From Escherichia coli (GTDB lineage: Bacteria; Pseudomonadota; Gammaproteobacteria; Enterobacterales; Enterobacteriaceae), in the NCBI RefSeq assembly GCF_030013595.1, contig NZ_CP122768.1: a stretch of 64,000 nt of DNA; one strand, written 5' to 3'. Shown here in pieces: positions 9,562 through 37,338 of this stretch (positions within the stretch are counted from its first letter, which is position 1; each line of letters begins with the position of its first letter). The notes under the pieces were generated by a model, which had not been told where the DNA came from, ran no database searches, and saw only the letters and a program-made list of their open reading frames with translations. Both the position numbers and the translations under genes were made by a program.

Positions 9562-9578
9562 AAAACACCCCAGCGAAG

Positions 9579-12453: not shown

Positions 12454-12567
<114 letters not shown>

Positions 12568-12609
12568 CCCTAATATAATGCCCCCACAATAACACGAGGG
12601 GGTACAACA

Positions 12610-13304: not shown

Positions 13305-13646
13305 ATGAAAAAGACTATCTACGCAATTATTGTTTCTGTGTGTGTTGGTGGCATCGGTGGATTTGTTTGTGGGTATGACTATTCCGATACTCAACATCAA
13401 GAGACTATCCGGTCAAATAAGGCCGAGATTAAGGATCTGAATCAGGAGATTAGCCAGTTAGAAAATGCTCTCTCACTCAAAGACAGTGAATATAGCGAGG
13501 TTTATGCAGATAAACAAAAATATTGGAAAGAGAAAGATAATCTCGTTGTTTACGGGATGAAATTGTGTAAGAGCATGAAGGACGAGCGCAGTTGTTTAAT
13601 GGAACTTGCCCTTAAAGGTAACGTGACCATCGACTTCAAAGACTAA
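13305..13646 (+). CDS. membrane-anchored coiled-coil protein (moron-like)
   Basis: 113 aa; N-terminal hydrophobic anchor IYAIIVSVCVGGIGGFVCG then coiled-coil; RBS AAGAGGATTC. Confidence 0.5.
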   Translation: MKKTIYAIIVSVCVGGIGGFVCGYDYSDTQHQETIRSNKAEIKDLNQEISQLENALSLKDSEYSEVYADKQKYWKEKDNLVVYGMKLCKSMKDERSCLMELALKGNVTIDFKD

Positions 13647-13675
13647 TTAATTCAAATAACAAAGAGGATTCTATT

Positions 13676-13921
13676 ATGAAAAAGATTATCGCTGGTATCG
13701 TTCTTGCTCTGGGTTTGGTTGGTGCTGCAAATGCCGAACAATATGTACAGGGTGATAGTGTCAAGCGTGCTGCCGTTGCACCTTCTTTAAATCAACTGTG
13801 TACTGAATTAGCACAGGTTGCCGGAGTTGGTGACGATGACGACTTTATTACTGCGTGTGTGTGGAGTCATATCGAGGATATTAATAAACGTGATGCAAAA
13901 CTAACTGGAAAGAAATATTAA
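13676..13921 (+). CDS. small secreted protein (moron-like)
   Basis: 81 aa; Sec signal peptide MKKIIAGIVLALGLVGAANA with AxA cleavage site; two Cys in mature part; RBS nearly identical to that of the preceding gene. Confidence 0.55.
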   Translation: MKKIIAGIVLALGLVGAANAEQYVQGDSVKRAAVAPSLNQLCTELAQVAGVGDDDDFITACVWSHIEDINKRDAKLTGKKY

Positions 13922-13971
13922 TGACTTACTAACCAATGCCCCTATCGTTATAATACACGGTAGGGGCGTTT

Positions 13972-15666: not shown

Positions 15667-15942
15667 GCGGCCTAAATCGACGTATAACGAGCTAAAACAG
15701 TTAAGGGGTACAGATGTACCCCTTTTTAATTTAATTGCGTTAGGCAGCGTAAGCAAGTTTCATAGTAGTTTCCTCTAAAATAATAAGTTCACTACTATTT
15801 ATCAGAGAAAATTGTCTTACTATTGCATTCTCTATCTGGATGTGGGTATAGGCGGGATTGAATACGGCAAAACTGAAACATTCCACTACTGCAATAAATC
15901 ACTAAACAATATAAAGAATATTGCAAGTGTGGAGTGGAACTA

Positions 15943-16254
15943 ATGCAAGATATTAAAATTCATTTTCAAGATTACAGTTTCGTTAAGGTTGATTGCTCTC
16001 CTTCTATCGGAATGGAATTAAGAGATTATTTCTCGTTTGAGGTTGAAGGGGCTAGGTTTAGCCCCCGTTACAAGTATTCTGGCTGGGATGGACGAATAAG
16101 ACTGTTTACGCATGAAAACACCCTACCAATTGGACTATTAAAAACGTTGGGTGTCTTCGTTAAAAATATGGGCTATTCAGTCTGGATTGACCCCAGATTG
16201 CTTGAGAAGGAAGATGTAACCAAAGACGCGATTAATGAATGGATTGATTCCTTA
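15943..16254 (+). pseudogene. UvsW-like SF2 helicase, N-terminal fragment (interrupted by IS1)
   Basis: MQDIKIHFQDYSFVKVDC... runs in frame into the IS1 left end; the frame continues on the other side of IS1. Confidence 0.7.
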
Positions 16255-16309
16255 GGTGATGCTGCCAACTTACTGATTTAGTGTATGATGGTGTTTTTGA
16301 GGTGCTCCA

Positions 16310-16585
16310 GTGGCTTCTGTTTCTATCAGCTGTCCCTCCTGTTCAGCTACTGACGGGGTGGTGCGTAACGGCAAAAGCACCGCCGGACATCAGCGCTATC
16401 TCTGCTCTCACTGCCGTAAAACATGGCAACTACAGTTCACTTACGCCGCCTCTCAGCCCGGTACGCACCAGAAAATCATTGATATGGCCATGAATGGCGT
16501 CGGATGTCGCGCCAGTGCACGCATTATTGGCGTTGGCCTCAACACGATTTTCCGCCACTTAAAAAACTCAGGCCGCAGTCGGTAA
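16310..16585 (+). CDS. insA: IS1 InsA
   Basis: 91 aa [43 protein letters not shown]..., zinc finger plus HTH. Confidence 0.9.
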
Positions 16586-17007
16586 CCTCGCGCATACAAC
16601 CGGGCAGTGATGTGATTGTCTGCGCTGAAATGGACGAACAGTGGGGCTACGTCGGTGCTAAATCACGTCAGCGCTGGCTGTTTTACGCGTATGACAGGAT
16701 GCGGAGGACGGTTGTGGCGCACGTCTTCGGTGAACGCACTCTGGCCACACTGGAGCGTCTTCTGAGCCTGCTGTCGGCCTTTGAGGTCGTGGTATGGATG
16801 ACGGATGGCTGGCCGCTGTATGAATCACGCCTGAAGGGAAAGCTGCACGTTATCAGCAAGCGTTATACTCAGCGCATTGAGCGGCATAACCTGAATCTGA
16901 GACAACATCTGGCAAGGCTGGGACGGAAGTCACTGTCGTTCTCAAAATCGGTGGAGCTGCATGACAAGGTCATCGGGCATTATCTGAACATAAAACACTA
17001 TCAGTAA
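16504..17007 (+). CDS. insB: IS1 InsB reading frame (expressed as InsAB' by -1 frameshift)
   Basis: 167 aa frame overlapping insA 3' end; DDE transposase core. Confidence 0.85.
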
Positions 17008-17022
17008 GTTGGAGTCATTACC

Positions 17023-18210
17023 GATTCCTTAGAAGTGTATTCCGGTAGCAATAAAATCAATCCTTATTGGTATCAAAGGGAGGCAGTCTTTCAGGGTATC
17101 CACAATCGCCGTAGAATGCTGGTTCTTCCTACCAGTGCCGGAAAGTCATTGATTGCTTGTATGCTGTCTCGTTGGTACTTAGAGAACTACACCGGAAAAG
17201 TGTTAATCATTGTTCCGACTACATCGCTAGTGGTTCAAATGAGGGATGATTTCATCGATTATAGGCTATTCCCTTATGAAGCAATTCATACAATGATGAG
17301 TGGTAGCGGGAAACATCCGGGAGACAGGTTAATCACGGTTAGTACCTGGCAATCAGCTTGCAAGATGCCTCCTGAATGGTTCCGACAATATGGAATGTTG
17401 ATAGTTGATGAATCGCATAAGGCTAGTGCCAAAAATATTACCAATATCATCAATGGAATGAATCATTGCCAATTTAAGATCGGCATGACTGGTTCCCCGA
17501 AAGAATCAAAGTGCCATTTAATGCAGTATGTCGGGCTTTTCGGTGATATTTCTAAGATCGTGAGTATTGACCGCCTGATGGAAGAAGGGCAGGTGACAAA
17601 ACTGAAAATTAACTGTCTTTTCCTTCGTTATACAGATGAGGAATGTAGCGCGGTTAAGGGGCGAGAATATGCGGAAGAGATCAAGTATATTACGTCTAAC
17701 CCACGACGAAATAAGTTTGCTTGTAATTTGGCGCTAAAACTAGCTAAGAAGGGCGAAAACGTATTCCTGATGTTCCGCAATACTAAGCACGGAAAACTTA
17801 TGTATGATGCGTTACAGAAGGTACACGACAAGGTTTATTATATTGACGGTGGAGTTAAGACAGAAGAACGTGATGAATTTAAGAAAATGGCGGAGGGTGA
17901 CACCGGGATCATTTGCGTTGCATCCTATGGTGTGTTCTCTACTGGTGTTTCAATTAAGAATTTGCATCATGTTATTTTCGGTCATCCAGTGAAGGAATCA
18001 ACTATCGTTCGTCAGAGTATCGGTCGTGCATTGCGTAAACATGGTTCTAAGGATATTGCAACGGTCTGGGATCTTATAGATCATCTGTGTATATTCGGTC
18101 GTAACGGAAAAGTCAAGCATAAAAATTATGCGGTAAAACATGCACTTGAGAGAATCCGCTATTATCTAACCGACAAGTTCAGCTATGCAACTAAAACAAT
18201 TGCTATATAA
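17023..18210 (+). pseudogene. UvsW-like SF2 helicase, C-terminal fragment
   Basis: Walker A LVLPTSAGKSL, DExH box IVDESHKA, helicase C-terminal motifs VASYGVFSTGVSIKNLHHVIFG and GRALRKHGSKDIATVWDL; in frame with the N-fragment across the IS1 target duplication. Confidence 0.7.
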
Positions 18211-18211
18211 C

Positions 18212-18240
18212 AAAAAAGCGCCCACTAGAGGCGCTTTAAT
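18212..18240. terminator. bidirectional rho-independent terminator between convergent helicase and lysis/structural operons
   Basis: stem AGCGCC/GGCGCT with 7-nt loop, A-run upstream and T-rich tract downstream. Confidence 0.45.
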
Positions 18241-18241
18241 T

Positions 18242-18595
18242 TTATCCATTCCATCGTGATTTTTTCGATCTGGAATCGATATGCGTAAAGGTTTTATATT
18301 TGCCTAAGCCGTATTGAGTAGGATATTTCCCATCAAGATAAGCATGGACAATATCAGGGGAGACACCCTTGATCACAATGTCAGCCGCACGGCCTCGAAC
18401 GTGATAGCTGTTGGTTGCACCGCCTACATTCTTGTTATGAGTCGGGCAACGGTTGCCACTGTTAATAATCACTGGTTTACCGAAGTGCTCTCGTACATCC
18501 TCAAGAATTACCAGTAATTCAGCGTCGATTGTATCATAATCACATTTTCCGCATTTACATTTAAATTCCTTGCGAGAAAAATGCTTACTTAACAT
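18242..18595 (-). CDS. endolysin, peptidase M15 family (L-alanyl-D-glutamate peptidase type)
   Basis: 117 aa; zinc-binding signature SYHVRGRAADI ... FTHID typical of VanY/M15 phage endolysins. Confidence 0.75.
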   Translation of the reverse strand: MLSKHFSRKEFKCKCGKCDYDTIDAELLVILEDVREHFGKPVIINSGNRCPTHNKNVGGATNSYHVRGRAADIVIKGVSPDIVHAYLDGKYPTQYGLGKYKTFTHIDSRSKKSRWNG

Positions 18596-20249: not shown

Positions 20250-23200
20250 TTAAGAAACAGTAATACCGGTAGTTGCTTTTTTAGTTACCATTACCGTTAA
20301 ATCACTGATCCATGTGCTAGGCGTCCAGTTGTTGATTGCGCTTGATTGCACTTCAAAGGTCAAGGTCACAGCACCCTTACCCGCTGGCATATCAATAACA
20401 CCTGAGTAAAGACCAGTATTACCGCCATACGCCCTATTATACAACTCTGACCCATTCTTACGAACAATCAGGCGACAGGTGTCGTAATAGGTATTATTGT
20501 TCGACCCTTCACGCGCTCGCAATCCACCAAAACTAACAGCCGGAATAACGATTTGACGATCGAACTTGTGATCATCTTCAACGCGAACAGTGACCGTACC
20601 TTGTGGATAGCCAGCATAACCATTATCAACGTTAACATCACGATGCGGGAACTTACGTCCAATCACCTTAACGAAATCACCCTTAACCTGAGTAGCTTCA
20701 AGCATACCCTTAATAACACAGCTAGAGTTAATCGTGACGTTGTTCAGAGTACCAGAATCGGCAGTGATATTACCTTTAACGGTTGCATTCATGAACGTAG
20801 CGGACCCGTTCTTGTTGATATGCCATCCGGTAGATCCGTTCCAGTCGGAAGACTGGATATAGTTACCAATTTTAGCGTTATCAATTGCGCCATTTACAAT
20901 CTTGGCGTTGGTGATCGCGCCGTCTTGGATTTTCGCTGAATTGATCGCAGCATTGCCAATTTTAGCCGTGGTGATACTAGCATCAGTAATCTGTGCTGAT
21001 CCGATTGAGGCATTACGAATCATGGCACTGTCGAGATAAACCTTGTTACCTTCGATACCAAACGGGCATACTTCCGATCCGTTCTGTGGAGCTACCGCGA
21101 TTTTATCAGCATTAAAGATGATTCTCGTCGGTTGCGCCGGATCGTTGGTTGCGCTCATGTGAATACCAGCCACGCGACCATCTGCATTAACTGCCAGATT
21201 ATATTTGCTGTTAATGGTTCCTTTCAAAGCATCGATTTTTACATCTGCTTCCTGATTCACGCCAGCAATCTTGCCATCCATTTCTACCCGAACTTGATCA
21301 ATCTTGCTTGCGCTTGCTGCCTCACTGGTAGCAATTGCTTGTTTCAGGGTAGTAGCAGATGCGCTGACTTCGGATTTAATATCGCCTTTCAGTTCAGCTT
21401 TAACCTGATCAATCTTAGTGGAGCTAGCTTGCTCGCTGGTAGCAATCAGACTCTTTAAGGTATTGGCTGAGGCTTGGACCGTCTGCCCTGTTTCGGTAGT
21501 GATTTGCTTATGCATTGCATCAATTTTAGCATCGGCATTAGCGCCAGCTTGAGCAATAGCATCCGCGATAGTTTCATCTAAGCGGTCTTGTAAACCAATC
21601 AGGTCTTCCAGTGCTTCTTTGTCCTGATCGTCCCAGCTAATTGTAGATCTCATTTGCATGAAATAAGGTTCAGACCAAACAGCATCATCCATACCGAAAA
21701 TATCGTAGTGAGCACCACGGATATAATAATCACCGTCAGCAATATCAAAGGAAGTATGGCTAACACTATTCGTGCTTACTGCCCTTGCATCGGAGAAAGT
21801 GTTATCGGTTGCATACTGGATGATTGACCCTGCATAATCATGTTCTACGTCATCTGCCCAGCTAACAAACACACTATTAAAGCCACCACGCGCACTAAAA
21901 CCTTTCATTGGCTTATGTTGTGGGTTGATAGCCACTAAACGCGCTGGGGCGCTCTCTGAGTTGTTATAGCCCTTAGCCGATACTTCTACCGTCAGTTGAC
22001 GCGAAAGGCCGTTAAACTGGTTCATATCAAGCGTATAAGTCCATGATTCAGGATCGCGGGTACGGTACTGAATAGACTTACCAGCCTTGTTAGTCACCTT
22101 GATAATGTATGCTTCAAACAGGTCACTAAACTTGTTAGTTTCACCGTTGATCTCAACATCTAATTGTTGCTGATTTTCCCATTCGATAATCAGATCATTA
22201 CCTTCGAAAGTTCCTGGCGTGCTACCCTGATTTTTGATTCGAATAACCGGAGTCGGCAATTCATAGGTAACAGTCGGATTCTGGTTAATCAGTTCTACCC
22301 ACTCGGAACGAGCAATAATACCGAAAGCACAAACTCGGTAATCATAAGAGCGATCTTTCGCCAGTGCATTGACACTGAAAATTTGCTGTGAAGTCTGTCC
22401 CAGCTTAATCCAGTTAGGCGATCCGCTTACACGGTAATCAATCTGGAAACCATAACGGTTAAAATCTTCCGGTGCATCCCATGTCAAAGTAACGTTTTTA
22501 CCGTAAATCGTCTCACCAGTTGCCTTAATCCTGAAATTAGTAGGCTTCTGTACTGTCATTGAATCCGGTAAACCACTTGGTCTATTGTCTGGAGTTGCCG
22601 CATAGTTCAGGTCAGTATAAACCTGAGAATTATATTCTGTGGCGGTGATAGTCATCATCCCAGCAATACCAGAATCAATCGAGCGATCAATTGCAGTAAT
22701 ACGCCATAAGGAATTATTCAGCTTCAATTCATCATAGGTTACGCTGATAACGTCCCAAACTTCGGCAGTGAATGCGTCAGTAGTCATAAAGCTGATAACC
22801 TGAGTGATACGAGATTTATTTCGCTCAATGCTCGCGAGTTTATCAATCTGATCTTTAGACTTAACAAAACGATATTCAATATCTTTAGCGATAATTCGAC
22901 CATCTTGACGAATAGTAGCATCGTTTTCAGCATCAGCCGGATAACGTAGCATTTGCTCTGAATAGTCAATTGATGGTTCTTGATACATCGCGTTAATGGT
23001 ATTGAAATAACCGTTAGTGCCACCTGTTTTCAGTGATACCTTACCCATCATGATATTGTCTTCATTGAAGGTATGCTTAACAATATCAGGAGCATCCAGT
23101 TTCAGCGTAATACGTCCAAAGGATTCGAACATCACCCCGCCGAAAGTCTGCATAAGATTAGTCAAGTTCTCTTTAAAGCTGGCGTTCGGATCACATGCAC

Positions 23201-24026
23201 CGTTTGAATGTAGATCCATCTGGCGTACTTGTTTACGTACTTTCAGGAATGAATCAACGTTAATGTTTTCAATTGGTACAGATAAGCCATATTTTTCATT
23301 TGTTAGGTAGTGGAAAATCTGGTCCACGCCGTTAGTGCTAGCCTCAATAGCATTAGTTTCAAGGTTACGAATCTTTAAGCCCATAACATCGACTGCTACC
23401 TGGCTATTTGGCTGGAGAATATCAACACCAGCAGCAAGAGATTTGTCATCACGACGTAACACAATACACATGGTTGCAATACCATTGCCTTTGTAGTTGT
23501 CGTTCCAGTCTGATCCTAAATGACGTTTTGCCAGTGACAAAGCGGTGTTAGGATTCTTACCCGTGCGAAACTCAACTTCTAAAACTTTCCGGTATTCTTC
23601 TTTAATGTTGCCTTTGTCCAGTACACCATCACGGATCGTCATGTTCTTACCAACAAGAACATTTTTGTTATCGATAAACAGTGCTTTGTAATGGTCGATT
23701 TCACCCTCGGCAATTGCGAAGATTTGCACTAACTTATTGTTTTCTTGCTTAGAAATTGCTTTGTAAACGCAGATTGCACCCGTGCGGGTAGTACCAAAAA
23801 GAACGGGTAATACTGTCTTCGGATCGTTTGATGTTCCTAGTGTCACCGCATTATCTGGGCTTTGTACTTTCGGTGTTTTTGGTGCGCCTACAGTGGAAGC
23901 GATCAAGGTCATTGCACCAGCAGCCATACCGATAGCGACTGCGGTCATAACCGAAAATGTTGCGGCTGCCGCCATCCCCGCCGAAGCACCAGCAATAACC
24001 GCGCCTACCAATACTTCAAATCCCAT
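20250..24026 (-). CDS. central tail fiber / host-specificity (J-like) protein
   Basis: 1258 aa; hydrophobic N-terminus, large beta-rich body and C-terminal Ser/Thr-rich fiber region; positioned after the distal tail genes. Confidence 0.65.
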   Translation of the reverse strand: MGFEVLVGAVIAGASAGMAAAATFSVMTAVAIGMAAGAMTLIASTVGAPKTPKVQSPDNAVTLGTSNDPKTVLPVLFGTTRTGAICVYKAISKQENNKLVQIFAIAEGEIDHYKALFIDNKNVLVGKNMTIRDGVLDKGNIKEEYRKVLEVEFRTGKNPNTALSLAKRHLGSDWNDNYKGNGIATMCIVLRRDDKSLAAGVDILQPNSQVAVDVMGLKIRNLETNAIEASTNGVDQIFHYLTNEKYGLSVPIENINVDSFLKVRKQVRQMDLHSNGACDPNASFKENLTNLMQTFGGVMFESFGRITLKLDAPDIVKHTFNEDNIMMGKVSLKTGGTNGYFNTINAMYQEPSIDYSEQMLRYPADAENDATIRQDGRIIAKDIEYRFVKSKDQIDKLASIERNKSRITQVISFMTTDAFTAEVWDVISVTYDELKLNNSLWRITAIDRSIDSGIAGMMTITATEYNSQVYTDLNYAATPDNRPSGLPDSMTVQKPTNFRIKATGETIYGKNVTLTWDAPEDFNRYGFQIDYRVSGSPNWIKLGQTSQQIFSVNALAKDRSYDYRVCAFGIIARSEWVELINQNPTVTYELPTPVIRIKNQGSTPGTFEGNDLIIEWENQQQLDVEINGETNKFSDLFEAYIIKVTNKAGKSIQYRTRDPESWTYTLDMNQFNGLSRQLTVEVSAKGYNNSESAPARLVAINPQHKPMKGFSARGGFNSVFVSWADDVEHDYAGSIIQYATDNTFSDARAVSTNSVSHTSFDIADGDYYIRGAHYDIFGMDDAVWSEPYFMQMRSTISWDDQDKEALEDLIGLQDRLDETIADAIAQAGANADAKIDAMHKQITTETGQTVQASANTLKSLIATSEQASSTKIDQVKAELKGDIKSEVSASATTLKQAIATSEAASASKIDQVRVEMDGKIAGVNQEADVKIDALKGTINSKYNLAVNADGRVAGIHMSATNDPAQPTRIIFNADKIAVAPQNGSEVCPFGIEGNKVYLDSAMIRNASIGSAQITDASITTAKIGNAAINSAKIQDGAITNAKIVNGAIDNAKIGNYIQSSDWNGSTGWHINKNGSATFMNATVKGNITADSGTLNNVTINSSCVIKGMLEATQVKGDFVKVIGRKFPHRDVNVDNGYAGYPQGTVTVRVEDDHKFDRQIVIPAVSFGGLRAREGSNNNTYYDTCRLIVRKNGSELYNRAYGGNTGLYSGVIDMPAGKGAVTLTFEVQSSAINNWTPSTWISDLTVMVTKKATTGITVS

Positions 24027-28114: not shown

Positions 28115-28465
28115 TTACCCCGTTTGTGCGCTTCTGAGTTTCTCAAGCAAAGATGGATCGAACATGTTCAGCATTGCCGCTTTACGTTCTTCTTCTTTCT
28201 TGCGTGCAATTTCTTCCAGTTCTTCTTTAGTTTTAAAGAGTTTTTCTTCTCTAATTAATTGGAATTGGCTAGGCTTGAGTTTGCGTGCAGTTTCGCGAGT
28301 CATTCCTTGTGACGTCATATACATGGAATATTGCAACATCGCATTCTGCATATCATGAAACGCGGGGCTTTGTGGTTCTAAGTAGGTGTCGAAAATGTAT
28401 AATTTCCAAAACAGAGTGATTGGCATATTATCCATTTCATCTTTACTAAGCCCCGATCGCATCAT
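28115..28465 (-). CDS. tail assembly chaperone, T-like ORF (probably expressed as frameshift fusion)
   Basis: 116 aa frame immediately upstream of the tape measure gene; its frame is open back to the stop of the preceding ORF. Confidence 0.5.
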   Translation of the reverse strand: MMRSGLSKDEMDNMPITLFWKLYIFDTYLEPQSPAFHDMQNAMLQYSMYMTSQGMTRETARKLKPSQFQLIREEKLFKTKEELEEIARKKEEERKAAMLNMFDPSLLEKLRSAQTG

Positions 28466-28494
28466 TTGCCGGAAATAGAAATTCAGAAGCGGGT

Positions 28495-28803
28495 TTACTT
28501 TACCTCGTTTTCAATTACTGCCGGATCTTGCATCAATGACGCTTGAGCAACCAAACCGATTAATTCACTACGGACGTTAGTATACAGTGCCTTAACTTGT
28601 TCCATAGATTCAAATACTGGTTTACCGTCTTCATCTTCAATACAACGAAGAATAGAACGTTCATCACGGTCTTCTTTATCAGTATTGAAAACATGTTCGT
28701 TAAATTCTTTTACTGACATAGGGCGAGCATAGAACGTGAATCCGCCGATGGTCAGAGATTCACGTTTCGGAGAAAGAGCTTTCAGCATTTCATTAATATT
28801 CAT
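28495..28803 (-). CDS. tail assembly chaperone, G-like ORF
   Basis: 102 aa; ends ...EVK with codons GTA AAG TAA where the -1 frame is open. Confidence 0.5.
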   Translation of the reverse strand: MNINEMLKALSPKRESLTIGGFTFYARPMSVKEFNEHVFNTDKEDRDERSILRCIEDEDGKPVFESMEQVKALYTNVRSELIGLVAQASLMQDPAVIENEVK

Positions 28804-28845: not shown

Positions 28846-29352
28846 TTAAGAGATTTTCAAAGTCTGCTTAGTGCCAGTCTTCTTAATGTTGGTAAGGAAA
28901 GCAGCCGGAGGATTGCTTAACCAGTAATAATGAAAACCACTTTGCATACTGTTATAAGGAACAGTGACAGCAGCACCACCCAAATTAACGGTTATATTCC
29001 CCGCTCTACCGTTCTGGAGATATACAGCCATAGTAGGAGTACCACCATTGAATTGACCAACGATAACGCCAATCAGACGCCCTACGCCCACGTTTTCGGG
29101 GTTCTCCATAGATCCTTTACCGCGCATGTCAGTTACTGGATAGTTTGAAGCAGTTACACCCCAGTTATTACCCAATGAAGTAGACCACGCAGCAGTAGCT
29201 ACAACCGTATCCATACCACGACCACACATCGCGCTCATATTACCAGGTACACCAACTTTTAACGCTTGCATAGCCTCACGCATCCATCTCTTGCCAGTTA
29301 CAGAAACAGCCGATGATCCGACCCAGCCGGGCTTATTAACGACATTTGCCAT
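28846..29352 (-). CDS. hypothetical tail protein
   Basis: 168 aa, RBS GGAG before the ATG, tail module context. Confidence 0.45.
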   Translation of the reverse strand: MANVVNKPGWVGSSAVSVTGKRWMREAMQALKVGVPGNMSAMCGRGMDTVVATAAWSTSLGNNWGVTASNYPVTDMRGKGSMENPENVGVGRLIGVIVGQFNGGTPTMAVYLQNGRAGNITVNLGGAAVTVPYNSMQSGFHYYWLSNPPAAFLTNIKKTGTKQTLKIS

Positions 29353-29365
29353 TTTTATTACTCCA

Positions 29366-29397
29366 ATAAAAAAGCCCCACCATTAAGGCAGGGCTTA
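29366..29397 (-). terminator. rho-independent terminator (copy 1 of a triplicated element)
   Basis: minus strand AAGCCCTGCC-TTAAT-GGTGGGGCTT followed by TTTTTT. Confidence 0.5.
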
Positions 29398-29403
29398 TAA
29401 TTA

Positions 29404-29526
29404 ATCTTTAGCCTTGCGGCTTCGTTTAGCTGTGGCTTTCGCCGTAACAACCTCTAATTCTGGAATCACCACCGCTTCATGTTCCGGCTGTGGTTCCGGT
29501 TCTATTAAAGGAAGTTCTTCGTTAGT
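29404..29526 (-). other. in-frame post-TGA extension ORF (41 codons) downstream of putative major tail gene
   Basis: translation continues in frame after the TGA stop: TNEELPLIEPEPQPEHEAVVIPELEVVTAKATAKRSRKAKD, ending TAA just before the terminator. Confidence 0.3.
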
Positions 29527-30003
29527 TCATCCGGCAGTATTGAAGATTTCCTGTTTCAGCGGTTTGCCGTCCACTGCAAAGGTAAACTCTTTAGTTACCA
29601 CTTCTTCATCGCCACCGTTCATAGCAACTTTAGAAATAAAGCCGTTGAAAGCGGTGCGAATACCAGTCTGTTTTCCGGCGTCAACATAATACTCTATTTT
29701 GATTTGTACTCTTGTGCCGTCTTCGGCAGCTTTGATCAATTTTTCGTGGACACTATCCCCGGGGATGTAATTCACCGTAAGAGTCAGATCAGGAACATTC
29801 AGTTTACCTACTAGTTTACGGTTATACTGAGAAGAGAAGGATTTAACTTCTACAGTACCGCGCTCGATACCAGTTTCAGGAAAACCAGCACACTCTTTAA
29901 TTTCTTCATAGCCCTCATGGTTGAGAGTGGTGTTAGTGGTATCGGCGTGATAGAACAGACTTACCAGACCACCAGTAAAAATATCTTTAAATTGCTGAGA
30001 CAT
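29527..30003 (-). CDS. putative major tail (tube) protein
   Basis: 158 aa, followed by a strong terminator as expected for an abundant structural protein; assignment by size and context only. Confidence 0.45.
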   Translation of the reverse strand: MSQQFKDIFTGGLVSLFYHADTTNTTLNHEGYEEIKECAGFPETGIERGTVEVKSFSSQYNRKLVGKLNVPDLTLTVNYIPGDSVHEKLIKAAEDGTRVQIKIEYYVDAGKQTGIRTAFNGFISKVAMNGGDEEVVTKEFTFAVDGKPLKQEIFNTAG

Positions 30004-30058
30004 AGAATTACCCCTTAATTAAATTGTTATTACGGGGGAACTAGTCCCCCGACTTTTA

Positions 30059-33000
30059 TTATTTAGTTGCTTTGAGTTCGGCAATTTCTTTCTGTAATGC
30101 TTCGATCTGGGCTTTATATTTGGCGTCCATTTCCTGAATAGCTTTAATAATCAAGGCATTAACAGCGGAGTTAGAAATAGTCTTAATTGCTTCTGGATTT
30201 TCTGGATCTTCGGTGGATTGAATACCTACTGCTTCCGGCAACACTTCTTCCAGATCCTGAGCAATAATACCTACTTCGCGTTTAATCACTGTGTCATCAG
30301 AAAGAGATTTAACTTTATCGTAGGTGTAGACTTTCAGGGAGTTTACTTTCTCTAATGCGCCGTCCTGTAATTCTTCCTTGTTGATTTTAAGGCGAGCATC
30401 AGAACGAATGTACACATCGTTAAAGCTACCGTTTCTGGATGCGCTTAAATCACCAGCCGCGTTAAAGTCAAACGTTGCATCGTGTACGTGCATACGCACC
30501 ATAGCATTTCCGATAGTACCGCTAGGAACATGTACACCCATTGCTGCGATATGATATTTACCTTGATGGGTTGCTTTCCATACGTTATGAGCGGAATCGG
30601 TTGATTGTTGACAGTCGACCTGAATACCAGAAGCACGATCACGCCAGCTAGTCCAACTACCACCAGCAACGCTACCACGAATAAGACCATTACCGCCACC
30701 GGATACAGTGCCCGTTTCAAGGTGAATCATCTTACCGCCGAATTTCCAGACTTCGGTTTGTTTCTCACCACGGAAGCGAATAACACCAGCGTCATCGCAA
30801 TACATCAAGCCCAACTCTAAACCGTTTGGATCTCTAAACCAGATGTGCTTATTGCCAGCGCGTTTAAACGTAATATCAGCACCAGTTGTTGTGATATTGC
30901 TAGCAACGTTTAGACTACCCGCCATAGAGAACAGAATAGGTCCAGTGCCACCCTGAGTACGTTCAGTATACCAGTGATAACTTGTAGCATCCTTACATTC
31001 AAAAACCTGTTTGCGTTGCTCGTTACCCCATGTATGGAGACTAAATTGCGAAGAAGAACCACGGTTAGCATCAAATGCAATTTCACCAGATTCTACACGT
31101 ACAAAGCCTCTAAAACGTGTTGTTATGTTACCAGTACCCATAGCACGTTCAGTGATAAAATGTGCGCCCTGACTGTCTTCAATCTGTAGGATGTTATCGC
31201 GACCGTTATTGCTATCGCCCCAATGGTTAAACCGGAAGTAATCGCGGGAATTTAATCGCCCAGCGTCGAAAGTCAAATGCCCTTTCTTAATGTAAACGTC
31301 ATTACTAAAGCGAGCGGCTTTGCTTGCACGTTCTAAGACTAATGCACCTTCGTTACCATCACCACCCAAAGTAACATTACCGCTACCAAGATGGTAAATG
31401 AACGGACGATAGCCGTTCCAACTACCAAGTTTATCATTTTCGGCAGTAGACAGAAGATATACGTTTTGACCATCATTACGCCAGAATGCACCATAATTAC
31501 CGTAGATCATGCGGTAAGCGTCGCTATTCATTGAGATGAATTGAGCGTTAGTATAAACTCGTTTTGTGTTACCGGTTGCAAGTTCGATCTGTCCGTCTAT
31601 GTGGTGACGAATAGAAGTACCACCTACATCACTATACCATTCAAAAACGTTAGTATCAGCATTACCATAACCGATCCACCCTTGACGGGTAATAGATCCA
31701 GTCCGATTATCTTGAAACGTAATATGGTTGGATTGACCAGCAGGACGCCGCAAGGTAATAACATTACTACCGCCACCCAACATCATTCGACCAGAAAGAA
31801 TATTACCTTTATGAGTCCCAGCAATAGAGCTACTAGATTCAACGGTTAGAATCTCCTGAGCATCTGTACTACCCGTGGCGAGTCGATAAGTAGAACCCTG
31901 AACCGTCTCATGCCAGATCATTTCATTATAGTTACTGCGGAATTTACGAATATATTTCCGACCAGTACCCCTATCATTACTCAAGTGAACAATATCATAA
32001 CTATTTTGTGTGTTATCGTCAAAACTCAACACACCTCGTTTGTTTTCGGTGTTGAAAAGAGTAATGATGCGCCCATCAATAACACCAACAGAAGGTTTAA
32101 TTAACGTGGCTTCCGGTGTATCGTGAACAGTCAGATTAACATAAACACTTTTACCAAATTCAACAATAACGTTATCAGTGTAACGCTGATATTTCACATA
32201 AATGTCATAGTTATCACCGGATGTATTGACGGCAAATACATCAAAATCTTTGACGGTATTTCGACGATATGCAACTACGTTAAGTCCTTTAGGTCTATCG
32301 TTACCACTACGGAGAAGAATTTCTACTACATCAACTTGGTCATATGCCGTAACGTTGTAACCATTACCACCATGAATACGGAAAAACACACTACGCCCGT
32401 TTTGTGGAATTGTTGCGGTTGCCAATTTGAAATATGCAGATACGTTTTCGCTAGAATTGGGAACAGACATAACGACGTTTTTAACAAACATCTTATCAAC
32501 TTCGGCTTTGGTGTATGCACCAATCTCGCCAGGAGTCGGCTTATCACCTTCGTGATACATCTTATAGCTAAAGTTCTTCTGTCCTTCTCTATCAAAACCA
32601 TAGGTTTCAACACGAGATCCACCAGACGCATAACGGAAAGTAAATCCGCGACCGTGAGCTTTACCGGCAGAGTGAGGAACGTTAAGAGTTAGATCCATGA
32701 GTCCATCTTGACCATTGGTACGGAAAGCACCAAAGTAGTTAAGATCTCTCGCTGTCTGGTCTTCCAAATAGTTAGCTGTTTTGGTTAACAGATACCCGCC
32801 ATGCTTAGTGTTGGTATTCTTCTTGATGTAAAGAGCATCGTTACTACCTTCAATACCATCAATTCGACGGTTAGCGGCTGCGATCGCTGAATCAGTATCA
32901 GTTTTGTTTTTGTCAACCTTTGCGTTAATAGCGGTATGGTTGCTATTCACCGTCCCTGTAAGGTTACTGATTTTAGTATCAACATCTTTCTTGTTGTCGG

Positions 33001-33520
33001 AAACGACCTTTTCAATCGCTGTTTTGTTAGCTGCAACCGTGCTAGTTAAGCTAGAAATTTTGTTATCTGCATCGGTTTTATTTGCAGTAACAGTTTTAGT
33101 CAAGTTGCTAACGTTGGTGTTAGTGGTATTAACTTTGTTGTTAATCGCGGTGTTATTGTCATTAACCGTCGTGGTTAAAGCTGCGATTTTATTGTCCGCA
33201 TCTCGTTTATTATTTGCTACAGTAGTTTCTATAGCTGATTTGTTAGATGCAACTGTCCCCGTAAGGTTATTGATCTTAGTATCAGCATCGGTTTTATTTG
33301 CCGCGATAGTCGCATCAGTAGTTTTCTTGTTATTGTCTACTTTTGTGTTTAAAGCATTATGACTTTCAGGAGAAACACTTACTTGAACTACTGCGTTATT
33401 TTTATCTTTGGTATAAATTACATGGTCTGCCATCTGAATAGCGATTTCACCGACCTGTAATTGTTCCGGCGTTGGCTTTTTACCAGCCGTCTGTGTGCGT
33501 TTAAATTGGATCGACTGCAT
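30059..33520 (-). CDS. side tail fiber with tandem repeats and C-terminal intramolecular chaperone (S74-like) domain
   Basis: 1153 aa; conserved fiber N-terminus (KPTPEQLQVGEIAI...YTKD), about five 28-29 aa repeats (ANKTDADTKINNLTGTV...), C-terminal DVYIRSDARLK ... GIIAQDLEEVLPEAV chaperone signature. Confidence 0.75.
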   Translation of the reverse strand: MQSIQFKRTQTAGKKPTPEQLQVGEIAIQMADHVIYTKDKNNAVVQVSVSPESHNALNTKVDNNKKTTDATIAANKTDADTKINNLTGTVASNKSAIETTVANNKRDADNKIAALTTTVNDNNTAINNKVNTTNTNVSNLTKTVTANKTDADNKISSLTSTVAANKTAIEKVVSDNKKDVDTKISNLTGTVNSNHTAINAKVDKNKTDTDSAIAAANRRIDGIEGSNDALYIKKNTNTKHGGYLLTKTANYLEDQTARDLNYFGAFRTNGQDGLMDLTLNVPHSAGKAHGRGFTFRYASGGSRVETYGFDREGQKNFSYKMYHEGDKPTPGEIGAYTKAEVDKMFVKNVVMSVPNSSENVSAYFKLATATIPQNGRSVFFRIHGGNGYNVTAYDQVDVVEILLRSGNDRPKGLNVVAYRRNTVKDFDVFAVNTSGDNYDIYVKYQRYTDNVIVEFGKSVYVNLTVHDTPEATLIKPSVGVIDGRIITLFNTENKRGVLSFDDNTQNSYDIVHLSNDRGTGRKYIRKFRSNYNEMIWHETVQGSTYRLATGSTDAQEILTVESSSSIAGTHKGNILSGRMMLGGGSNVITLRRPAGQSNHITFQDNRTGSITRQGWIGYGNADTNVFEWYSDVGGTSIRHHIDGQIELATGNTKRVYTNAQFISMNSDAYRMIYGNYGAFWRNDGQNVYLLSTAENDKLGSWNGYRPFIYHLGSGNVTLGGDGNEGALVLERASKAARFSNDVYIKKGHLTFDAGRLNSRDYFRFNHWGDSNNGRDNILQIEDSQGAHFITERAMGTGNITTRFRGFVRVESGEIAFDANRGSSSQFSLHTWGNEQRKQVFECKDATSYHWYTERTQGGTGPILFSMAGSLNVASNITTTGADITFKRAGNKHIWFRDPNGLELGLMYCDDAGVIRFRGEKQTEVWKFGGKMIHLETGTVSGGGNGLIRGSVAGGSWTSWRDRASGIQVDCQQSTDSAHNVWKATHQGKYHIAAMGVHVPSGTIGNAMVRMHVHDATFDFNAAGDLSASRNGSFNDVYIRSDARLKINKEELQDGALEKVNSLKVYTYDKVKSLSDDTVIKREVGIIAQDLEEVLPEAVGIQSTEDPENPEAIKTISNSAVNALIIKAIQEMDAKYKAQIEALQKEIAELKATK

Positions 33521-33597
33521 CGAATCACCTCACTATAAAACAGGAATAAGGGAGGCGTTAACCTCCCAACGTTCATGTTTTATTTAGGTACGCAATC

Positions 33598-34431
33598 TTA
33601 ATACTCACCGAAATCGATCCGGTCCGTCTTAGCCACTGCGCCAATTTCGGCTGGCGTAGGCTTCTCGTTTGTTGTATAGACTTTAATCCATTCCGATTTT
33701 CCGTTGTCCTGAATATTTCGTACCCGCAAACGTGGAGCACCGGAAGTATTACACGTTAATTGCCATGCGCCATGCTCATTAGCTTGAAGATGAATTAACG
33801 ATGTATCAGCACCATAAGGGTTAGTGCTAGCCGTTCCTTTGTAGGTTACAAAGCGGTTTCCTGTCAGAGATTCACTATCAATAGGTCCGGTGAATGGGCT
33901 AACGCCTGAGCCTACGCCAAAATCCCCTTGTCGGATGAGTTTTCCCTCGGTCGCTATACCCCTTGCTAGAATCCCGCCATCTGGTTCAAGTTTAAATTCC
34001 AGTGTTACAGCTTTGTTATCACTACCACGGGTTTTATGTGATGTGACGTAAGCATCGAATATACAAAAGTACCCTGTGTTAGCAGCACTATAGCCAGAGT
34101 TCACAACATAGAACATACGGAAGCGTAAAGGTGTTTTATCCTCTACCGCTTTCATCAACATTGCTTGATGTTCGTCATCCAGAACACGGTTTAACGTGAG
34201 TGTCGTCGGTTCCAGTCTACGATAACCAGCAAGTTTCCCCGTAGCGTCCTGATCGTACTCTTCCAGAGTTTCAATCTCTGTGGATTCTGTTAGCGTAGGG
34301 AATGCTGCGACGTTCTCAATAGAACTAAAGCTAGGATCGAAAAAGTCGACCTGATTGTCTAGCTGGTTAGAGATCGACACTTCAACATGCGATCCCGTAA
34401 AAATATCTAAGTTATCTTGTGTAATATTCAT
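33598..34431 (-). CDS. hypothetical structural protein
   Basis: 277 aa; C-terminal EKPTPAEIGAV motif echoes the fiber N-terminus. Confidence 0.4.
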   Translation of the reverse strand: MNITQDNLDIFTGSHVEVSISNQLDNQVDFFDPSFSSIENVAAFPTLTESTEIETLEEYDQDATGKLAGYRRLEPTTLTLNRVLDDEHQAMLMKAVEDKTPLRFRMFYVVNSGYSAANTGYFCIFDAYVTSHKTRGSDNKAVTLEFKLEPDGGILARGIATEGKLIRQGDFGVGSGVSPFTGPIDSESLTGNRFVTYKGTASTNPYGADTSLIHLQANEHGAWQLTCNTSGAPRLRVRNIQDNGKSEWIKVYTTNEKPTPAEIGAVAKTDRIDFGEY

Positions 34432-34440: not shown

Positions 34441-34911
34441 TTAAAAACGCGCTAGATAAGAAAATTTAAGGCTAAGTGTCCCAACGATACCCCCATCACT
34501 AGAATCATCGTCATAATCGGTATTAGAAGCTACTGGAGTGATATCTGAAATTGAGAAGCCCAAATCTTTAAAACGTGGGTTATCCGGCTGAATCTGGATT
34601 ATCTGGCAAATACCCTCATGAATTTTGGTTTCATGAATCTGAGAATACAATTGCATTTCGATAACGCATTCAGCTTGCATTGCATTACCGCCACGGACCC
34701 TATTGTAAGTCTCATTCATTCCGGTGATCCAACAAACCACGTCATCACTAAAGCCTTGCTGAGTTTGTTCTACGTTTAAAGCCAGACCTAAATCTTGTTC
34801 GATAATATCCTGCAAGGCGCGTTTGATTTTCAGTCTAGGCATATTATTAACGGTAGCGAGCATGTGTACCCCCTGCCAGAGTGATAAAGCAATCAGTTGT
34901 ATTGTCACCAT
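34441..34911 (-). CDS. head-tail joining protein candidate
   Basis: 156 aa ORF in head-to-tail junction region; true start may be the internal Met. Confidence 0.35.
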   Translation of the reverse strand: MVTIQLIALSLWQGVHMLATVNNMPRLKIKRALQDIIEQDLGLALNVEQTQQGFSDDVVCWITGMNETYNRVRGGNAMQAECVIEMQLYSQIHETKIHEGICQIIQIQPDNPRFKDLGFSISDITPVASNTDYDDDSSDGGIVGTLSLKFSYLARF

Positions 34912-35167: not shown

Positions 35168-35196
35168 AAAAAAGCCCCACCGTTAGGCAGGGCTAA
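35168..35196 (-). terminator. rho-independent terminator (copy 2)
   Basis: minus strand AGCCCTGCC-TAAC-GGTGGGGCT followed by TTTTTT. Confidence 0.5.
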
Positions 35197-35202
35197 TTAT
35201 TA

Positions 35203-35286
35203 TTTTGCTTTCGGTGGACGTCCCACCTTTTTAGCTGTGGCTTTCGCCGTAACTACCGGAATTTCTTCCGGCAATTCTTCGTTATT
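35203..35286 (-). other. in-frame post-TGA extension ORF (28 codons) downstream of capsid gene
   Basis: NNEELPEEIPVVTAKATAKKVGRPPKAK after the TGA; shares NEELP and VVTAKATAK with the extension at 29404..29526. Confidence 0.3.
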
Positions 35287-37293
35287 TCACTCTTCGCCAA
35301 TTTTCAGAACTTTCAGAGCTTCCGGCTGTGCTACAACGTAGTCCAAATCTACAAAGATACGAGGCACTACCGCACCACGGTCACGGTATGTAGTTAGATC
35401 CATATCCAGTTCCAGACCGCCCCACTCACCGATGGTAATACCGGAGAAGTCACCCAGAACGATGTGGTCTGCCGGAATAACGCCAGAAGTAACTACTTCG
35501 TAACCAGCCAGTTTGCCGTTTTCGATGATATAACCGGAAACGCCGTTATCTTTCAGGGTAGATTCCAGTTCGGCAGCAGTTGCACCGCTCATTGCAAACT
35601 TGATCGCCTGAGCAGGAACGCCAGCGTCGGTCAGTGCTGCAATTTCTTTCAGGAAGTCTTTATAAGAGAAAGCAGCTTTCTTGGTAACGCGGCTAGCGTC
35701 TACCAGTTGCTTAACCAGACCAGCCGGACCACGAGCATTTTCTTTATCAGACAGAATCAGTTGTTCCAGTTTGATACGAACAGCTTTGTTAATGTGATCA
35801 GTGATCAGGGTAGCGATGCCCGGAACGGTTTTCAGCGACTGACGGCTGATCGGGTTGCCACCAGCAAAAGTTTTCGGAGACAGTTTCACGTTCGCAAATT
35901 CAGCTTTGCTTTCCGGTGCAGCACCGTTTTCATCAACGAAGCCGAAAGCGTCAACGCTGGAAGCGGTCATTTTTGGAATAGCGGTCGGGGAGTTCAAGCC
36001 ACTGTAAACAGTCACACCCAGACGACCCAGACACGAAGCAGGAAGCAGCATTTCGATGTAGGATTCAGTCATCAGTTTTTCGTCAGTGATAGCGGTCAGG
36101 TCGGCTTTGGTGTTACCAGCAGAAGCAGCACGCAGAGCAGCAGCCGGAACGAATACAGAGCCACCACGAGCAGCACGACCACGCTGCATAGTTGCAGTAG
36201 CAGCCATTGCGGAATATTCAGCTTCGTTAGCGCCGAGCACGTCGCCATCTACCAGGGAGCGGATTACGTTATTAAGATCGAAAGTTTTTTCCATGATTTG
36301 TTCCTTATTAATTTGTTCGTTATTACGTTGAGCATTGGTAATGTTATTTAGTGCCTTAGTGCGGAATGCTTCCGGCGTCATGTCTTTAATTGCCAATGCG
36401 CGTGCTAATTCAGAGTCATCAATATTTAGTTCGCGTGCAATTTCGCGAATTTCTAATTCGTCTTCTTCGGAACGTTCAGCCACTTCCTCGGTTTTTTCTT
36501 CTTCAACCGGAGCGGCTTCACGTTCTTCTTTTACTTCTTCTGTTTCCCGAACAGTTGAACTATCATCATCAACACTTTCAGGATGTTCAGCGTCTTTTCC
36601 GTCTTCGAGATTTTCATCTTCTTTATTCTCTTCAACTTGGCGCTCTTGAGTTTCTTCAACTTCCGGTTCTTTATTTTCTTCTACCGGAGTTTCTTCAACC
36701 TGAGCGGCTTCTTGTTCTTCTTTGATTTCTTCGATTTGTTCTTTAGTCATATCGCGTTTAGCCCCCAAATTAACTGTGATAGTATTTAGAGAGCGATTTA
36801 AACCGACCGTATCGTCTGCGGGCACCGACACCCATGAAATCTCGTGAGGAATCCATTTAGAAACAATGAGTTGCGATTTAGCGTAGTCGATGTGATATTC
36901 TTTAATGTCATAACCGACAGAAATTTTTTCCATCGTACCTTCAATGACTTTATTGCGAATATCATTAGCCAAAGTGCCATGCTTAGAGAATCTAACGGTC
37001 GCACGGCCTACGTTATCCGCATCGATTCGAGCGTTACAAACGACACCAATGTGATTATCGAAATTGTGATTGAACAGCAACGGAGCGTTATTATTCAGAC
37101 GAGACAGATCAACCGCTTCCGGTGTATGTACCAGAATTTCATCTAATACCACCATTTCTTGATTTTGCTCATCCCAAAATTGGCGCTGATAAGGCTGTGT
37201 ACTTGAGAAAGCAATTTCAAATTCGTATTGATCGTTATGCCCTTCATTAATAACTCCACCGTAACCGTTAAGATCGCGGCGAAATTTAAGCAT
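35287..37293 (-). CDS. prohead protease - scaffold - major capsid protein fusion
   Basis: 668 aa; N-terminal protease-like domain, central Glu-rich acidic linker (scaffold/delta-like), C-terminal HK97-like capsid region; directly downstream of portal. Confidence 0.65.
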   Translation of the reverse strand: MLKFRRDLNGYGGVINEGHNDQYEFEIAFSSTQPYQRQFWDEQNQEMVVLDEILVHTPEAVDLSRLNNNAPLLFNHNFDNHIGVVCNARIDADNVGRATVRFSKHGTLANDIRNKVIEGTMEKISVGYDIKEYHIDYAKSQLIVSKWIPHEISWVSVPADDTVGLNRSLNTITVNLGAKRDMTKEQIEEIKEEQEAAQVEETPVEENKEPEVEETQERQVEENKEDENLEDGKDAEHPESVDDDSSTVRETEEVKEEREAAPVEEEKTEEVAERSEEDELEIREIARELNIDDSELARALAIKDMTPEAFRTKALNNITNAQRNNEQINKEQIMEKTFDLNNVIRSLVDGDVLGANEAEYSAMAATATMQRGRAARGGSVFVPAAALRAASAGNTKADLTAITDEKLMTESYIEMLLPASCLGRLGVTVYSGLNSPTAIPKMTASSVDAFGFVDENGAAPESKAEFANVKLSPKTFAGGNPISRQSLKTVPGIATLITDHINKAVRIKLEQLILSDKENARGPAGLVKQLVDASRVTKKAAFSYKDFLKEIAALTDAGVPAQAIKFAMSGATAAELESTLKDNGVSGYIIENGKLAGYEVVTSGVIPADHIVLGDFSGITIGEWGGLELDMDLTTYRDRGAVVPRIFVDLDYVVAQPEALKVLKIGEE

Positions 37294-37338
37294 TTAATCA
37301 CCTTTAATTAATTGGGGGCATTGCGCCCCCGTTGGTTA

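Follow-up and report, generated by a model that had tools for sequence, protein, structure and literature searches.

How does a siphovirus-type prophage come to carry the gene of a T-even-like fibre between its head genes and its tail-tube gene, and what would hold such a fibre to a non-contractile tail? The question is raised by a stretch of 64,000 nucleotides of Escherichia coli DNA (contig NZ_CP122768.1 of assembly GCF_030013595.1; hereafter the window), in which a side tail fibre gene occupies positions 30059..33520. The first-pass annotation had described a 1153-amino-acid (aa) side fibre, and this description is borne out, for a gene within a siphovirus-type module, by the open reading frame (ORF), by the match to the PHROG 1699 family and by the presence of a separate J-like central tip. 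It had also placed the gene between head and tail-tube genes, which is confirmed, with the addition that the 277-aa gene upstream of the fibre is tube-like as well. Its view that this position is unusual is fair, considering that the S74-bearing side-fibre gene of phage T5 sits at the distal end of the tail module. The explanation that we prefer, and which we consider probable as a whole, is that a temperate siphovirus carries trimeric side fibres whose shaft this gene encodes, each in effect the distal half of a T-even fibre set on a non-contractile tail. The odd position of the gene probably reflects the upstream tube paralogue, which ends in a T4-type connector. The block that hosts the fibre gene has a G+C content of ~38-46% over ~12-50 kb vs ~47-55% in its flanks, and a segment of the flank matches pig E. 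coli isolates near opgD/rimL at 100% identity; the block is therefore a prophage in E. coli. The gene and its parts are as follows.

30059..33520, minus strand: side tail fibre gene, a single intact ORF with an ATG start, 1153 aa
33368..33520, minus strand: N-terminal domain of the fibre, aa 1-51, the proposed docking end, from homology to the gp37 N-terminus
32795..33367, minus strand: rod, aa 52-242, ~190 aa in 29-aa (18+11) units, with its repeat core at 32915-33301, from autocorrelation and a unit map
30404..32794, minus strand: gp37-like shaft and tip, aa 243-1039, ending in a DVYIR strand, from the alignment with Phi1 gp37
31394-31663, minus strand: Gp34_trimer-type domain, aa 620-709 (Pfam Gp34_trimer, E 5.3e-24)
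30062..30403, minus strand: intramolecular chaperone Peptidase_S74, aa 1040-1153 (Pfam PF13884, E 1.6e-14)
30386..30418, minus strand: predicted autocleavage site DVYIR|SDARLK, aa 1035-1045, from the motif and aligned sites of phages S16 and fPS

The resemblance to gp37 runs through most of the protein. PHROG 1699 ('long tail fiber protein distal subunit') covers aa 544-1151 (E 2.9e-148), and aa 243-1150 align with aa 71-978 of Phi1 gp37 at 77% identity over 917 aligned positions. The likeness extends to the DNA, where ~70% of the gene shows ~80% identity to g37 of Krischvirus (Phi1, RB49, JSE and others), with 79.3% over 2721 nucleotides (nt) by blastn and an average of 83.0% across the megablast pieces. 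At the proximal end, aa 1-51 match aa 4-54 of Phi1 gp37 (41% identity, E 1e-10) and aa 1-47 match aa 4-50 of T4 gp37 (38% identity, E 1e-10), and within the shaft the Gp34_trimer-type region also matches the T4 gp34 chains 5nxf and 4uxe in the PDB (E ~1e-14). Judged from these alignments, the fibre is a mosaic gp37-type protein with the complete gp37 architecture plus an inserted rod, and in its identity together with its chaperone we are highly confident. An NCBIfam scan gave no match for the fibre, the adhesin and tube proteins described below, or their small neighbours. The module of tip plus chaperone is widespread, with tblastn matches in 1514 phage records that cover T-even gp37, T5-like L-shaped fibres, fibres of Stx phages and PblB proteins, and the fibre itself is an ordinary gp37/S74 member and a product of routine tail-fibre mosaicism. 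It also shows clearly that virulent T-even phages and a temperate siphovirus have exchanged sequence; if the proposed explanation is true, it would document that a fibre segment of ~2.7 kb was swapped recently between E. coli prophages and phages of the virulent T-even kind. It does not belong to a kinked fibre of four proteins (gp34-gp35-gp36-gp37) on the baseplate of a contractile tail, as its surroundings form a siphovirus module, and no match to the gp34 or gp35 families was found among the scanned late-module proteins. The fibre works like gp37 but is not part of a T-even long tail fibre.

The relatives compared comprise 27 IMG/VR loci that hold the whole region, two annotated E. coli genomes, a Proteus mirabilis prophage and the record of phage DCP80. 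Gene order is the same in all 27 loci and in both genomes, and it also holds in the Proteus prophage, where the fibre gene is split, and in the deposited DCP80 record. The position of the fibre gene is fixed in the whole lineage and is not an oddity of this prophage. The family is rare: of 5426 complete E. coli genomes, 54 have a match. Two classes of an exchangeable cassette can be told apart among the 27 complete loci, with perfect co-variation of their contents.

Class A, 15 loci: fibre 65-88% identical to that of the window, tube158 (the 158-aa tube protein encoded downstream of the fibre) 88-99%, gp38-type gene present
Class B, 12 loci: fibre 38-42% identical to that of the window, tube158 58-60%, gp38-type gene absent

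The genes that flank the cassette are highly conserved in both classes (the 156-aa protein, for example, is 96-99% identical), and the fibre's N-terminal domain is common to both, with DNA similarity to the relative L003 picking up again at 33360. Within class A the fibre is itself mosaic, varying most in the rod, at aa 561-640 and at aa 761-880. As for DCP80 (PQ671644.1), its 141-kb record is classed as a T4-like Gaprivervirus, yet positions 1-18560 form a siphovirus-type module with a gpA-like terminase, portal, capsid, 698-aa tube-connector protein, fibre, tube protein, chaperones and tape measure; chimeric assembly of the record is possible, as is misclassification.

The C-terminal intramolecular chaperone signature reported by the first-pass annotation, which would have had to be given up had there been no S74-like domain, is upheld. 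The Pfam PF13884 match reaches 54.4 bits against a cut-off of 22 over aa 1040-1098 (profile positions 1-57 of 58), and the sole solved-structure match of the last 200 residues is, by sequence, chain A of PDB 6F45 (E 0.0016), named 'Long tail fiber distal subunit', which comes from the gp37-gp38 assembly of Salmonella phage S16 (Dunne et al. 2018, summarized in PMC7917993). Ser1040 and Lys1045 form the predicted dyad, with 114 residues from Ser1040 to the C-terminus. An SDxRxK motif stands 111-117 aa before the C-terminus in 27 of 27 related fibres of both classes, and no part of the fibre is better conserved among class A relatives than the chaperone (89-95%). Phage S16 has an S74-type chaperone of ~113 residues too, and its aligned cleavage site is DLNVS^SDRRIKK, that of the T4-like fPS phages being DVYIR^SDGRLKI; in these phages cleavage before the SD.R.K motif exposes the docking surface for gp38 (PMC7917993). 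In RB49, the chaperone domain of gp37 cleaves itself off, after which one gp38 monomer caps the fibre and recognizes the receptor with its C-terminal domain (PMC9569957). The chaperone of the prophage fibre is likewise predicted to be removed after trimerization.

A candidate for the cap is encoded two genes downstream of the fibre gene.

28846..29352, minus strand: gp38-type adhesin, 168 aa (Pfam PF21721 Gp38_N, E 3.5e-15)
29209-29352, minus strand: N-terminal domain of the adhesin for attachment to the gp37 tip, with Trp10 and Trp23 (Gp38_N)
28849-29208, minus strand: head domain of the adhesin, of unassigned fold

The N-terminus of the adhesin is 64% identical to that of RB49 gp38 over aa 7-48. 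Its gene accompanies the gp37-like fibre in 15 of 15 loci and is found with the other fibre type in 0 of 12. The closest full-length relatives are the proteins named 'tail fibre adhesin' of the Stx phages P13374, phi191 and 75/02 Stx (44% identity). These phages resemble the prophage in having fibre/adhesin pairs and the same S74 region in their fibres, but differ from it in phage type and gene context. In a predicted structure the head is a compact folded domain (pLDDT >90), and a PDB sequence search with the adhesin gave no match. Overall, we consider it quite likely that this gp38-type protein caps the fibre tip. With regard to linkage, the gp38 gene of RB49 (AY343333.1) lies at 4992-5768 among genes of the early region, far from g37, and Phi1 has no g38 annotated next to its g37. 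Fibre and adhesin are thus unlinked in the likely donor lineage, much as a tube gene keeps them apart in the prophage.

The answer to the second half of the question, that of the anchor, is sought in the gene directly upstream of the fibre gene, which encodes a paralogue of the tube protein and is called tube277 here.

33598..34431, minus strand: tube277, tail-tube paralogue of 277 aa, the proposed anchor ring
33946-34431, minus strand: tube-fold domain of tube277
33817-33945, minus strand: Gly-rich linker of tube277
33601-33813, minus strand: connector of tube277 resembling the gp36 C-terminus, ending in IDFGEY
29527..30003, minus strand: tube158, probable major tail tube protein, in the exchangeable cassette (PHROG 158, E 6.7e-22)

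At 28% identity (E 9e-14), tube277 and tube158 are paralogues. The last 72 residues of tube277 align end-to-end with the last 71 of Phi1 gp36 (32% identity, E 1e-5), and the two proteins end alike in ...KPTPA(E/D)(I/V)GAV...IDFG(E/T)(Y/F). A profile made from 16 tube277 homologues matches gp36 aa 432-499 (E 3.7e-11, with the search space set to one million), and gp36 is its best non-family match among 1447 ORFs from Phi1, RB49, T5, the window, DCP80 and Proteus. The homologues carry one to several knob domains and are 275-282, 474-482 or 698 aa long, and in all of them the D and G of the terminal IDFGE(Y/F) are invariant. In T4, in Phi1, in this prophage, in the Proteus prophage and in DCP80, the gene for a protein ending in ..DFGxx lies directly upstream of the fibre gene, and the paired fibre genes begin with ..(Q/K)F(K/R)R..GE(L/I)..IN..TKD. 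It is known that gp36 and gp37 join trimer to trimer, gp37 being bound at its N-terminal end by the C-terminal end of gp36 (PMC9603124). That the prophage fibre would dock in this way, on gp36-like connectors of a tube277 ring, is a reading that we favor by a small degree. The end of tube277 being gp36-like, the order of connector then fibre can be read as the order of g36 then g37 carried into a siphovirus module. The gene layout as a whole would find its explanation in the gp37 homology, the gp38-type adhesin gene and the tube paralogue with its gp36-like end.

How this arrangement arose is a further matter. We regard it as an even chance that a duplicated tube protein gained the gp37-binding C-terminus of gp36, the hinge protein of T-even phages, with the gp36/gp37 junction acting as a portable socket and plug between virulent myoviruses and temperate siphoviruses. 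Such a portable socket would account for the order of the genes as well as for the ~80% identity in DNA to Krischvirus g37. A tube-fold ring would then present gp36-like connectors, presumably trimerizing in pairs per hexamer, and a complete T-even distal half-fibre, made up of the gp36 end, the gp37 shaft and a gp38-type cap, would plug directly into a non-contractile tail. A limited, non-exhaustive literature search found no description of a fusion between a tube protein and gp36.

Comparison with characterized phages shows what is borrowed in this fibre and what is particular to it. The Krischvirus gp37 proteins (Phi1, RB49 and JSE) have a similar shaft, a homologous N-terminal domain, the same DVYIR|SD.R.K site and self-cleaving chaperone, and a gp38 with the same attachment domain. 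They differ in that the prophage is a temperate siphovirus and in that Phi1 gp37 has only ~16 residues where the fibre carries its ~190-aa rod. Their partner gp36 differs as well, in that only the last ~70 residues are gp36-like in the prophage, where they are fused to a tail-tube domain. In T5, whose S74-bearing fibre is pb1, a duplicated tube protein distinct from the major tube protein (p140) is part of the fibre-anchoring ring and is surrounded by a separate Ig-like collar protein (p132), with the ltf gene placed distally in the tail module. The prophage has a duplicated tube-fold protein too, but shows no evident collar gene; its tube paralogue bears the gp36-like connector itself, and the fibre gene follows directly after. 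Ur-lambda, likewise a temperate siphovirus of E. coli, has a central fibre of the J type, and its side fibres, which are related to gp37, speed adsorption; the N-termini of its Stf form a dodecameric collar at the gpV/gpM junction. The lambda stf and tfa genes come after J at the distal end, unlike the fibre gene of the prophage, and lambda Stf uses a Tfa-type chaperone, not an S74 domain. In Sf11, side fibres or spikes are anchored by an adaptor domain on the distal tail protein. The layout seen here suggests a fourth way to fasten side fibres to non-contractile tails, beside the T5 collar, the self-collar of lambda Stf and the Sf11 adaptor, and a tube paralogue with a gp36-type socket would be a new form of siphovirus side-fibre attachment. 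If this holds, the gp36/gp37 junction would be a natural transferable interface for grafting the receptor-binding fibres of T-even phages, which are well studied in their specificity, onto siphovirus or tailocin scaffolds.

Put together, the proposed working of the fibre would begin with the trimerization of three chains, for which the C-terminal S74 chaperone would serve as the nucleus. The chaperone (aa 1040-1153) would then cut itself off between Arg1039 and Ser1040 by means of Ser1040 and Lys1045, exposing the DVYIR strands of the tip. One 168-aa adhesin could cap the tip by its Gp38_N domain, with the head domain touching the receptor. At the other end, aa 1-51 would dock on the gp36-like connector of tube277, itself forming a tube-fold ring at some level of the tail, and the coiled-coil rod (aa 52-242) would act as a spacer that sets the reach of the fibre. 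Next to the J-like central tip, such a fibre may speed or broaden adsorption. Observed in this scheme are the domain homologies, the motifs, the order of the genes and their co-variation; cleavage, capping, docking on the paralogue and the stoichiometry and tail position of the ring are inferred.

Several results speak against parts of this proposal and have to be weighed. At the anchor, a hidden Markov model of the tube277 C-terminus gave no match when run against T4 gp34-37, T4 gp36 included; the T4 gp36 terminus, ...QDFGYY, contains a DFGYY that resembles tube277 by eye only. The PDB holds no gp36 structure, and sequence searches of it with Phi1 gp36 and T4 gp36 were without match. The knob part of tube277, where the putative contact with the fibre would lie, was predicted at low confidence (pLDDT 44-57). 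At the tip, the tube gene separates the adhesin gene from the fibre gene, and the head of the adhesin matches the polyglycine-rich gp38 head of the S16/T2 type neither in sequence nor in fold. In addition, the adhesin is 90-99% conserved in class A, where aa 561-640 and aa 761-880 of the fibre stand at only 49-66%, which is unusual for a determinant of specificity.

This conservation also feeds the least unlikely of the alternatives, namely that the shaft of the fibre itself bears the receptor-binding site and that the 168-aa protein is an assembly factor, or a conserved cap without a role in specificity. The contrast between a conserved adhesin and a variable shaft is what would be expected from it, as is the situation in the relative L002, whose fibre gene has no detectable DNA similarity at window positions 30433-30917 (fibre aa ~868-1029) though its gp38 gene falls within a 91.7%-identical stretch; that the head is unlike the known receptor-binding gp38 heads also fits. 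However, the 168-aa protein has the adhesin-type Gp38_N domain with both conserved tryptophans (PMC7917993), and the gp38 chaperone of T4 is unrelated to proteins of this type according to a note in the T4 record. The confident prediction of a folded head and the annotation of the Stx phage homologues as adhesins likewise argue for an adhesin. We hold this alternative to be unlikely.

A second alternative keeps the fibre and its anchor but moves them to the other end of the tail, with the fibre mounted head-proximally as neck or collar whiskers and a tube277 ring under the tail terminator. The genes for tube277 and the fibre do come directly after those for the head-tail joining proteins (the FII-like 96-aa protein and the 156-aa protein) and before the tube gene, in an order identical in all relatives, and the fibritin whiskers of T4 too have a long coiled-coil segment. 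Gene position does not fix the position of a ring, however, since T5 p140 is encoded beside the tube gene and located at the tip. The fibre also has a full gp37 plus gp38 receptor-binding end, which contacts cells in all characterized cases, and the known side fibres of siphophages (T5, Ur-lambda) are anchored at the junction of tube and distal tail protein. We consider the whisker arrangement improbable.

Equally improbable, in our estimation, is that the roles of the two tube proteins are reversed, with tube277 the true major tube protein bearing a decorative knob, tube158 a minor one, the gp36-like end an ornament that plays no part in docking and the fibre attached elsewhere, for instance by a collar of its own as in Ur-lambda, where the fibre N-termini make the collar themselves. 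Counting against our preferred assignment here, both proteins match PHROG 158, whose profile of 376 positions makes long tube proteins seem normal, and the one to several knobs of the homologues resemble variable decorations. Against a reversal of roles, the D and G of IDFGE(Y/F) are kept despite the inserted domains, and the terminal module matches the gp36 end that binds gp37. Moreover, tube158 holds the place upstream of the G/T chaperones and the tape measure (immediately upstream of the chaperones in class B, Proteus and DCP80, with the gp38 gene intervening in the window and class A), and the two strongest terminator hairpins of the operon stand 3' of tube158 and of the capsid gene. Owing to this place and to the strong terminator behind it, tube158 is the probable major tube protein; its Pfam matches fall just under threshold, at 27.6 bits for Phage_TTP_11 (cut-off 28.4) and 26.0 for Phage_TTP_12 (cut-off 26.1). 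A further reading, that the fibre gene is a pseudogene or remnant, was rejected, as the ORF is intact here and in 27 of 27 relatives with complete sequence.

If the rod sets the reach of the fibre, its repeats and their variation deserve attention. The 'about five' tandem 28-29-aa repeats of the first-pass annotation are real at the protein level, with five copies of an 11-aa sub-motif. BLOSUM autocorrelation of aa 41-235 against 300 shuffles peaks at lags 29 (z 8.7), 72 (z 9.3), 18 (z 6.9) and 43 (z 5.6), with lag 11 also among the peaks, and by hand the rod resolves into an 18-aa motif (xNKxDxDxKIxxLTxTV) that alternates with an 11-aa motif (xxNxxAIxxxV). The unit map comprises four full units of 28-29 aa (aa 74-101, 102-130, 145-173 and 174-202), a truncated unit of 14 aa (aa 131-144) and degenerate units at the flanks, and 16-20 of 29 residues are common to the units. 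Because the large hydrophobic residues are spaced 11-3-4-7-4 (sum 29), a coiled-coil-type pattern with hendecad insertions, the rod is predicted to be a trimeric alpha-helical coiled coil. The units are far less alike as DNA, with 58-69% identity and a longest common exact run of 17 nt, and Tandem Repeats Finder, at a minimum score of 30, reported no array in the rod.

The length of the rod was taken as the distance between the conserved anchors VSPExH and RIDGIEG; a search for homologues of the fibre N-terminus gave mostly truncated proteins, usable for rod lengths only. By this measure class A rods are 183 aa (8 loci) or 211 aa (7 loci) long and class B rods 206 aa (11 loci) or 151 aa (1 locus), while that of the window has 164 aa, a length seen at no other locus examined. 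The closest relatives, L002 included, differ from the window by one clean gap of 141 nt, or 47 codons (18+29), which are deleted in the window, and the ends of this gap sit in register at equivalent positions of two rod units; no long exact repeat or microhomology was found at the junction. In complete E. coli genomes, all close matches span 962 or 878 bp vs 821 bp in the query. The proposal that repeat number varies by recombination and so alters fibre length therefore stands in part: rod length does differ (151-211 aa), but through in-register block indels and segment swaps rather than the copy number of one unit. Fibre length is evolvable through such in-register block changes, and the low DNA identity of the units (58-69%) argues against frequent slippage or easy homologous recombination. 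In the Proteus mirabilis relative (9882-12516 of its record) the fibre is split into a 198-aa proximal gene, which holds a gp37-type N-terminus and a short rod, and a 675-aa distal gene. As the split falls there, the boundary of rod and shaft is a natural module junction in this lineage.

Read in the sense of transcription, the late module in which all this is embedded runs from the large terminase, a 164-aa head-tail joining protein, the portal, a 668-aa capsid-family protein, the FII-like 96-aa protein and the 156-aa protein to tube277, the fibre, tube158, the gp38-type adhesin and the G and T chaperones, followed by the tape measure, the distal tail protein, hub-like proteins and a 1258-aa tip protein. 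Between the capsid and tape-measure genes all are assigned except the 156-aa protein, which is without a family match; the FII-like protein has a weak match to Pfam Phage_attach (E 3e-5, 24.9 bits vs a cut-off of 26). The tip protein is the second fibre-like protein of the first-pass annotation, which had put it at the usual distal position; its identity is that of a J-type tip, not a side fibre.

20250..24026, minus strand: central tip/attachment protein of the lambda J type, 1258 aa, not a side fibre (Pfam Ig_GpJ_C, E 8e-34; Phage_Tail_Tip, E 9e-19)

The NCBIfam model lambda_TipJ matches the C-terminal part of this protein (E 7e-61), well under the full-length cut-off.

The capsid gene and tube158, which carry the strong terminators, also have homologous elements 3' of their stop codons.

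29369-29529, minus strand: 3' element of tube158, with 41 sense codons after UGA (29404-29526), then TAA and a hairpin at 29372-29396
35168-35289, minus strand: 3' element of the capsid gene, homologous to the tube158 element, with 28 codons

Both genes end in UGA-A, and the homology between the elements starts exactly at the stop. The extensions (28 and 41 codons) end in Lys/Ala-rich tails, ...VVTAKATAKKVGRPPKAK and ...VVTAKATAKRSRKAKD, followed by TAA just ahead of a strong terminator. In 33 of 33 related capsid genes TGA-A is followed by an open extension of 28, 42, 43, 44 or 45 codons, the differences in length being whole codons only, and class A tube genes have TGA plus 36-41 open codons (15/15), while those of class B end in TAA without an extension (12/12); TAA is the stop of 21 of the 24 genes in the late module. 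A comparison of extension length with other genes has no clean null, as abutting genes inflate the lengths. Amino-acid conservation of the extensions is weak, and the counts of variable sites at codon positions 1, 2 and 3 (8/18/21) give a weak signal, from a small tube sample and with a control misregistered by indels, from which purifying selection is not claimed. An Rfam scan of 28-36 kb with E up to 1 returned nothing. In Proteus and DCP80, a similar peptide has a small ORF of its own, with an ATG that overlaps or abuts the stop codon of the capsid gene. The element may represent programmed UGA readthrough, a separate small peptide, a possibility raised by the ORF layout in Proteus and DCP80, or an RNA element of the 3' untranslated region. 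A non-exhaustive literature search found no report of readthrough in the capsid gene of a double-stranded DNA phage; frameshifting that recodes capsid and tail genes as a pair is known from the Listeria phages PSA, A118 and A500 and from Lactobacillus phage A2 (PMC5009743).

Some smaller observations were made along the late genes. The chaperone ORFs lie on the minus strand at 28495-28803 (G-like) and 28115-28465 (T-like), and at their junction (28465-28510) the T-like ORF overlaps the G-like one by 4 codons in its -1 frame, with a GGTAAAG just ahead of the G stop, a layout consistent with the -1 frameshift (G/GT) conserved among long-tailed phages. ARAGORN reported a 91-nt tRNA-Gln (anticodon ttg) at 34586-34676 on the plus strand, antisense within the gene for the 156-aa protein, which from its length and position is likely a false positive. 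Finally, the fibre gene, the tube277 gene and the portal gene are each followed by a short G+C-rich hairpin that lacks a good T-run (at 30033-30051, 33550-33567 and 37313-37331, respectively), and these may act as mRNA stabilizers or weak attenuators between late genes.

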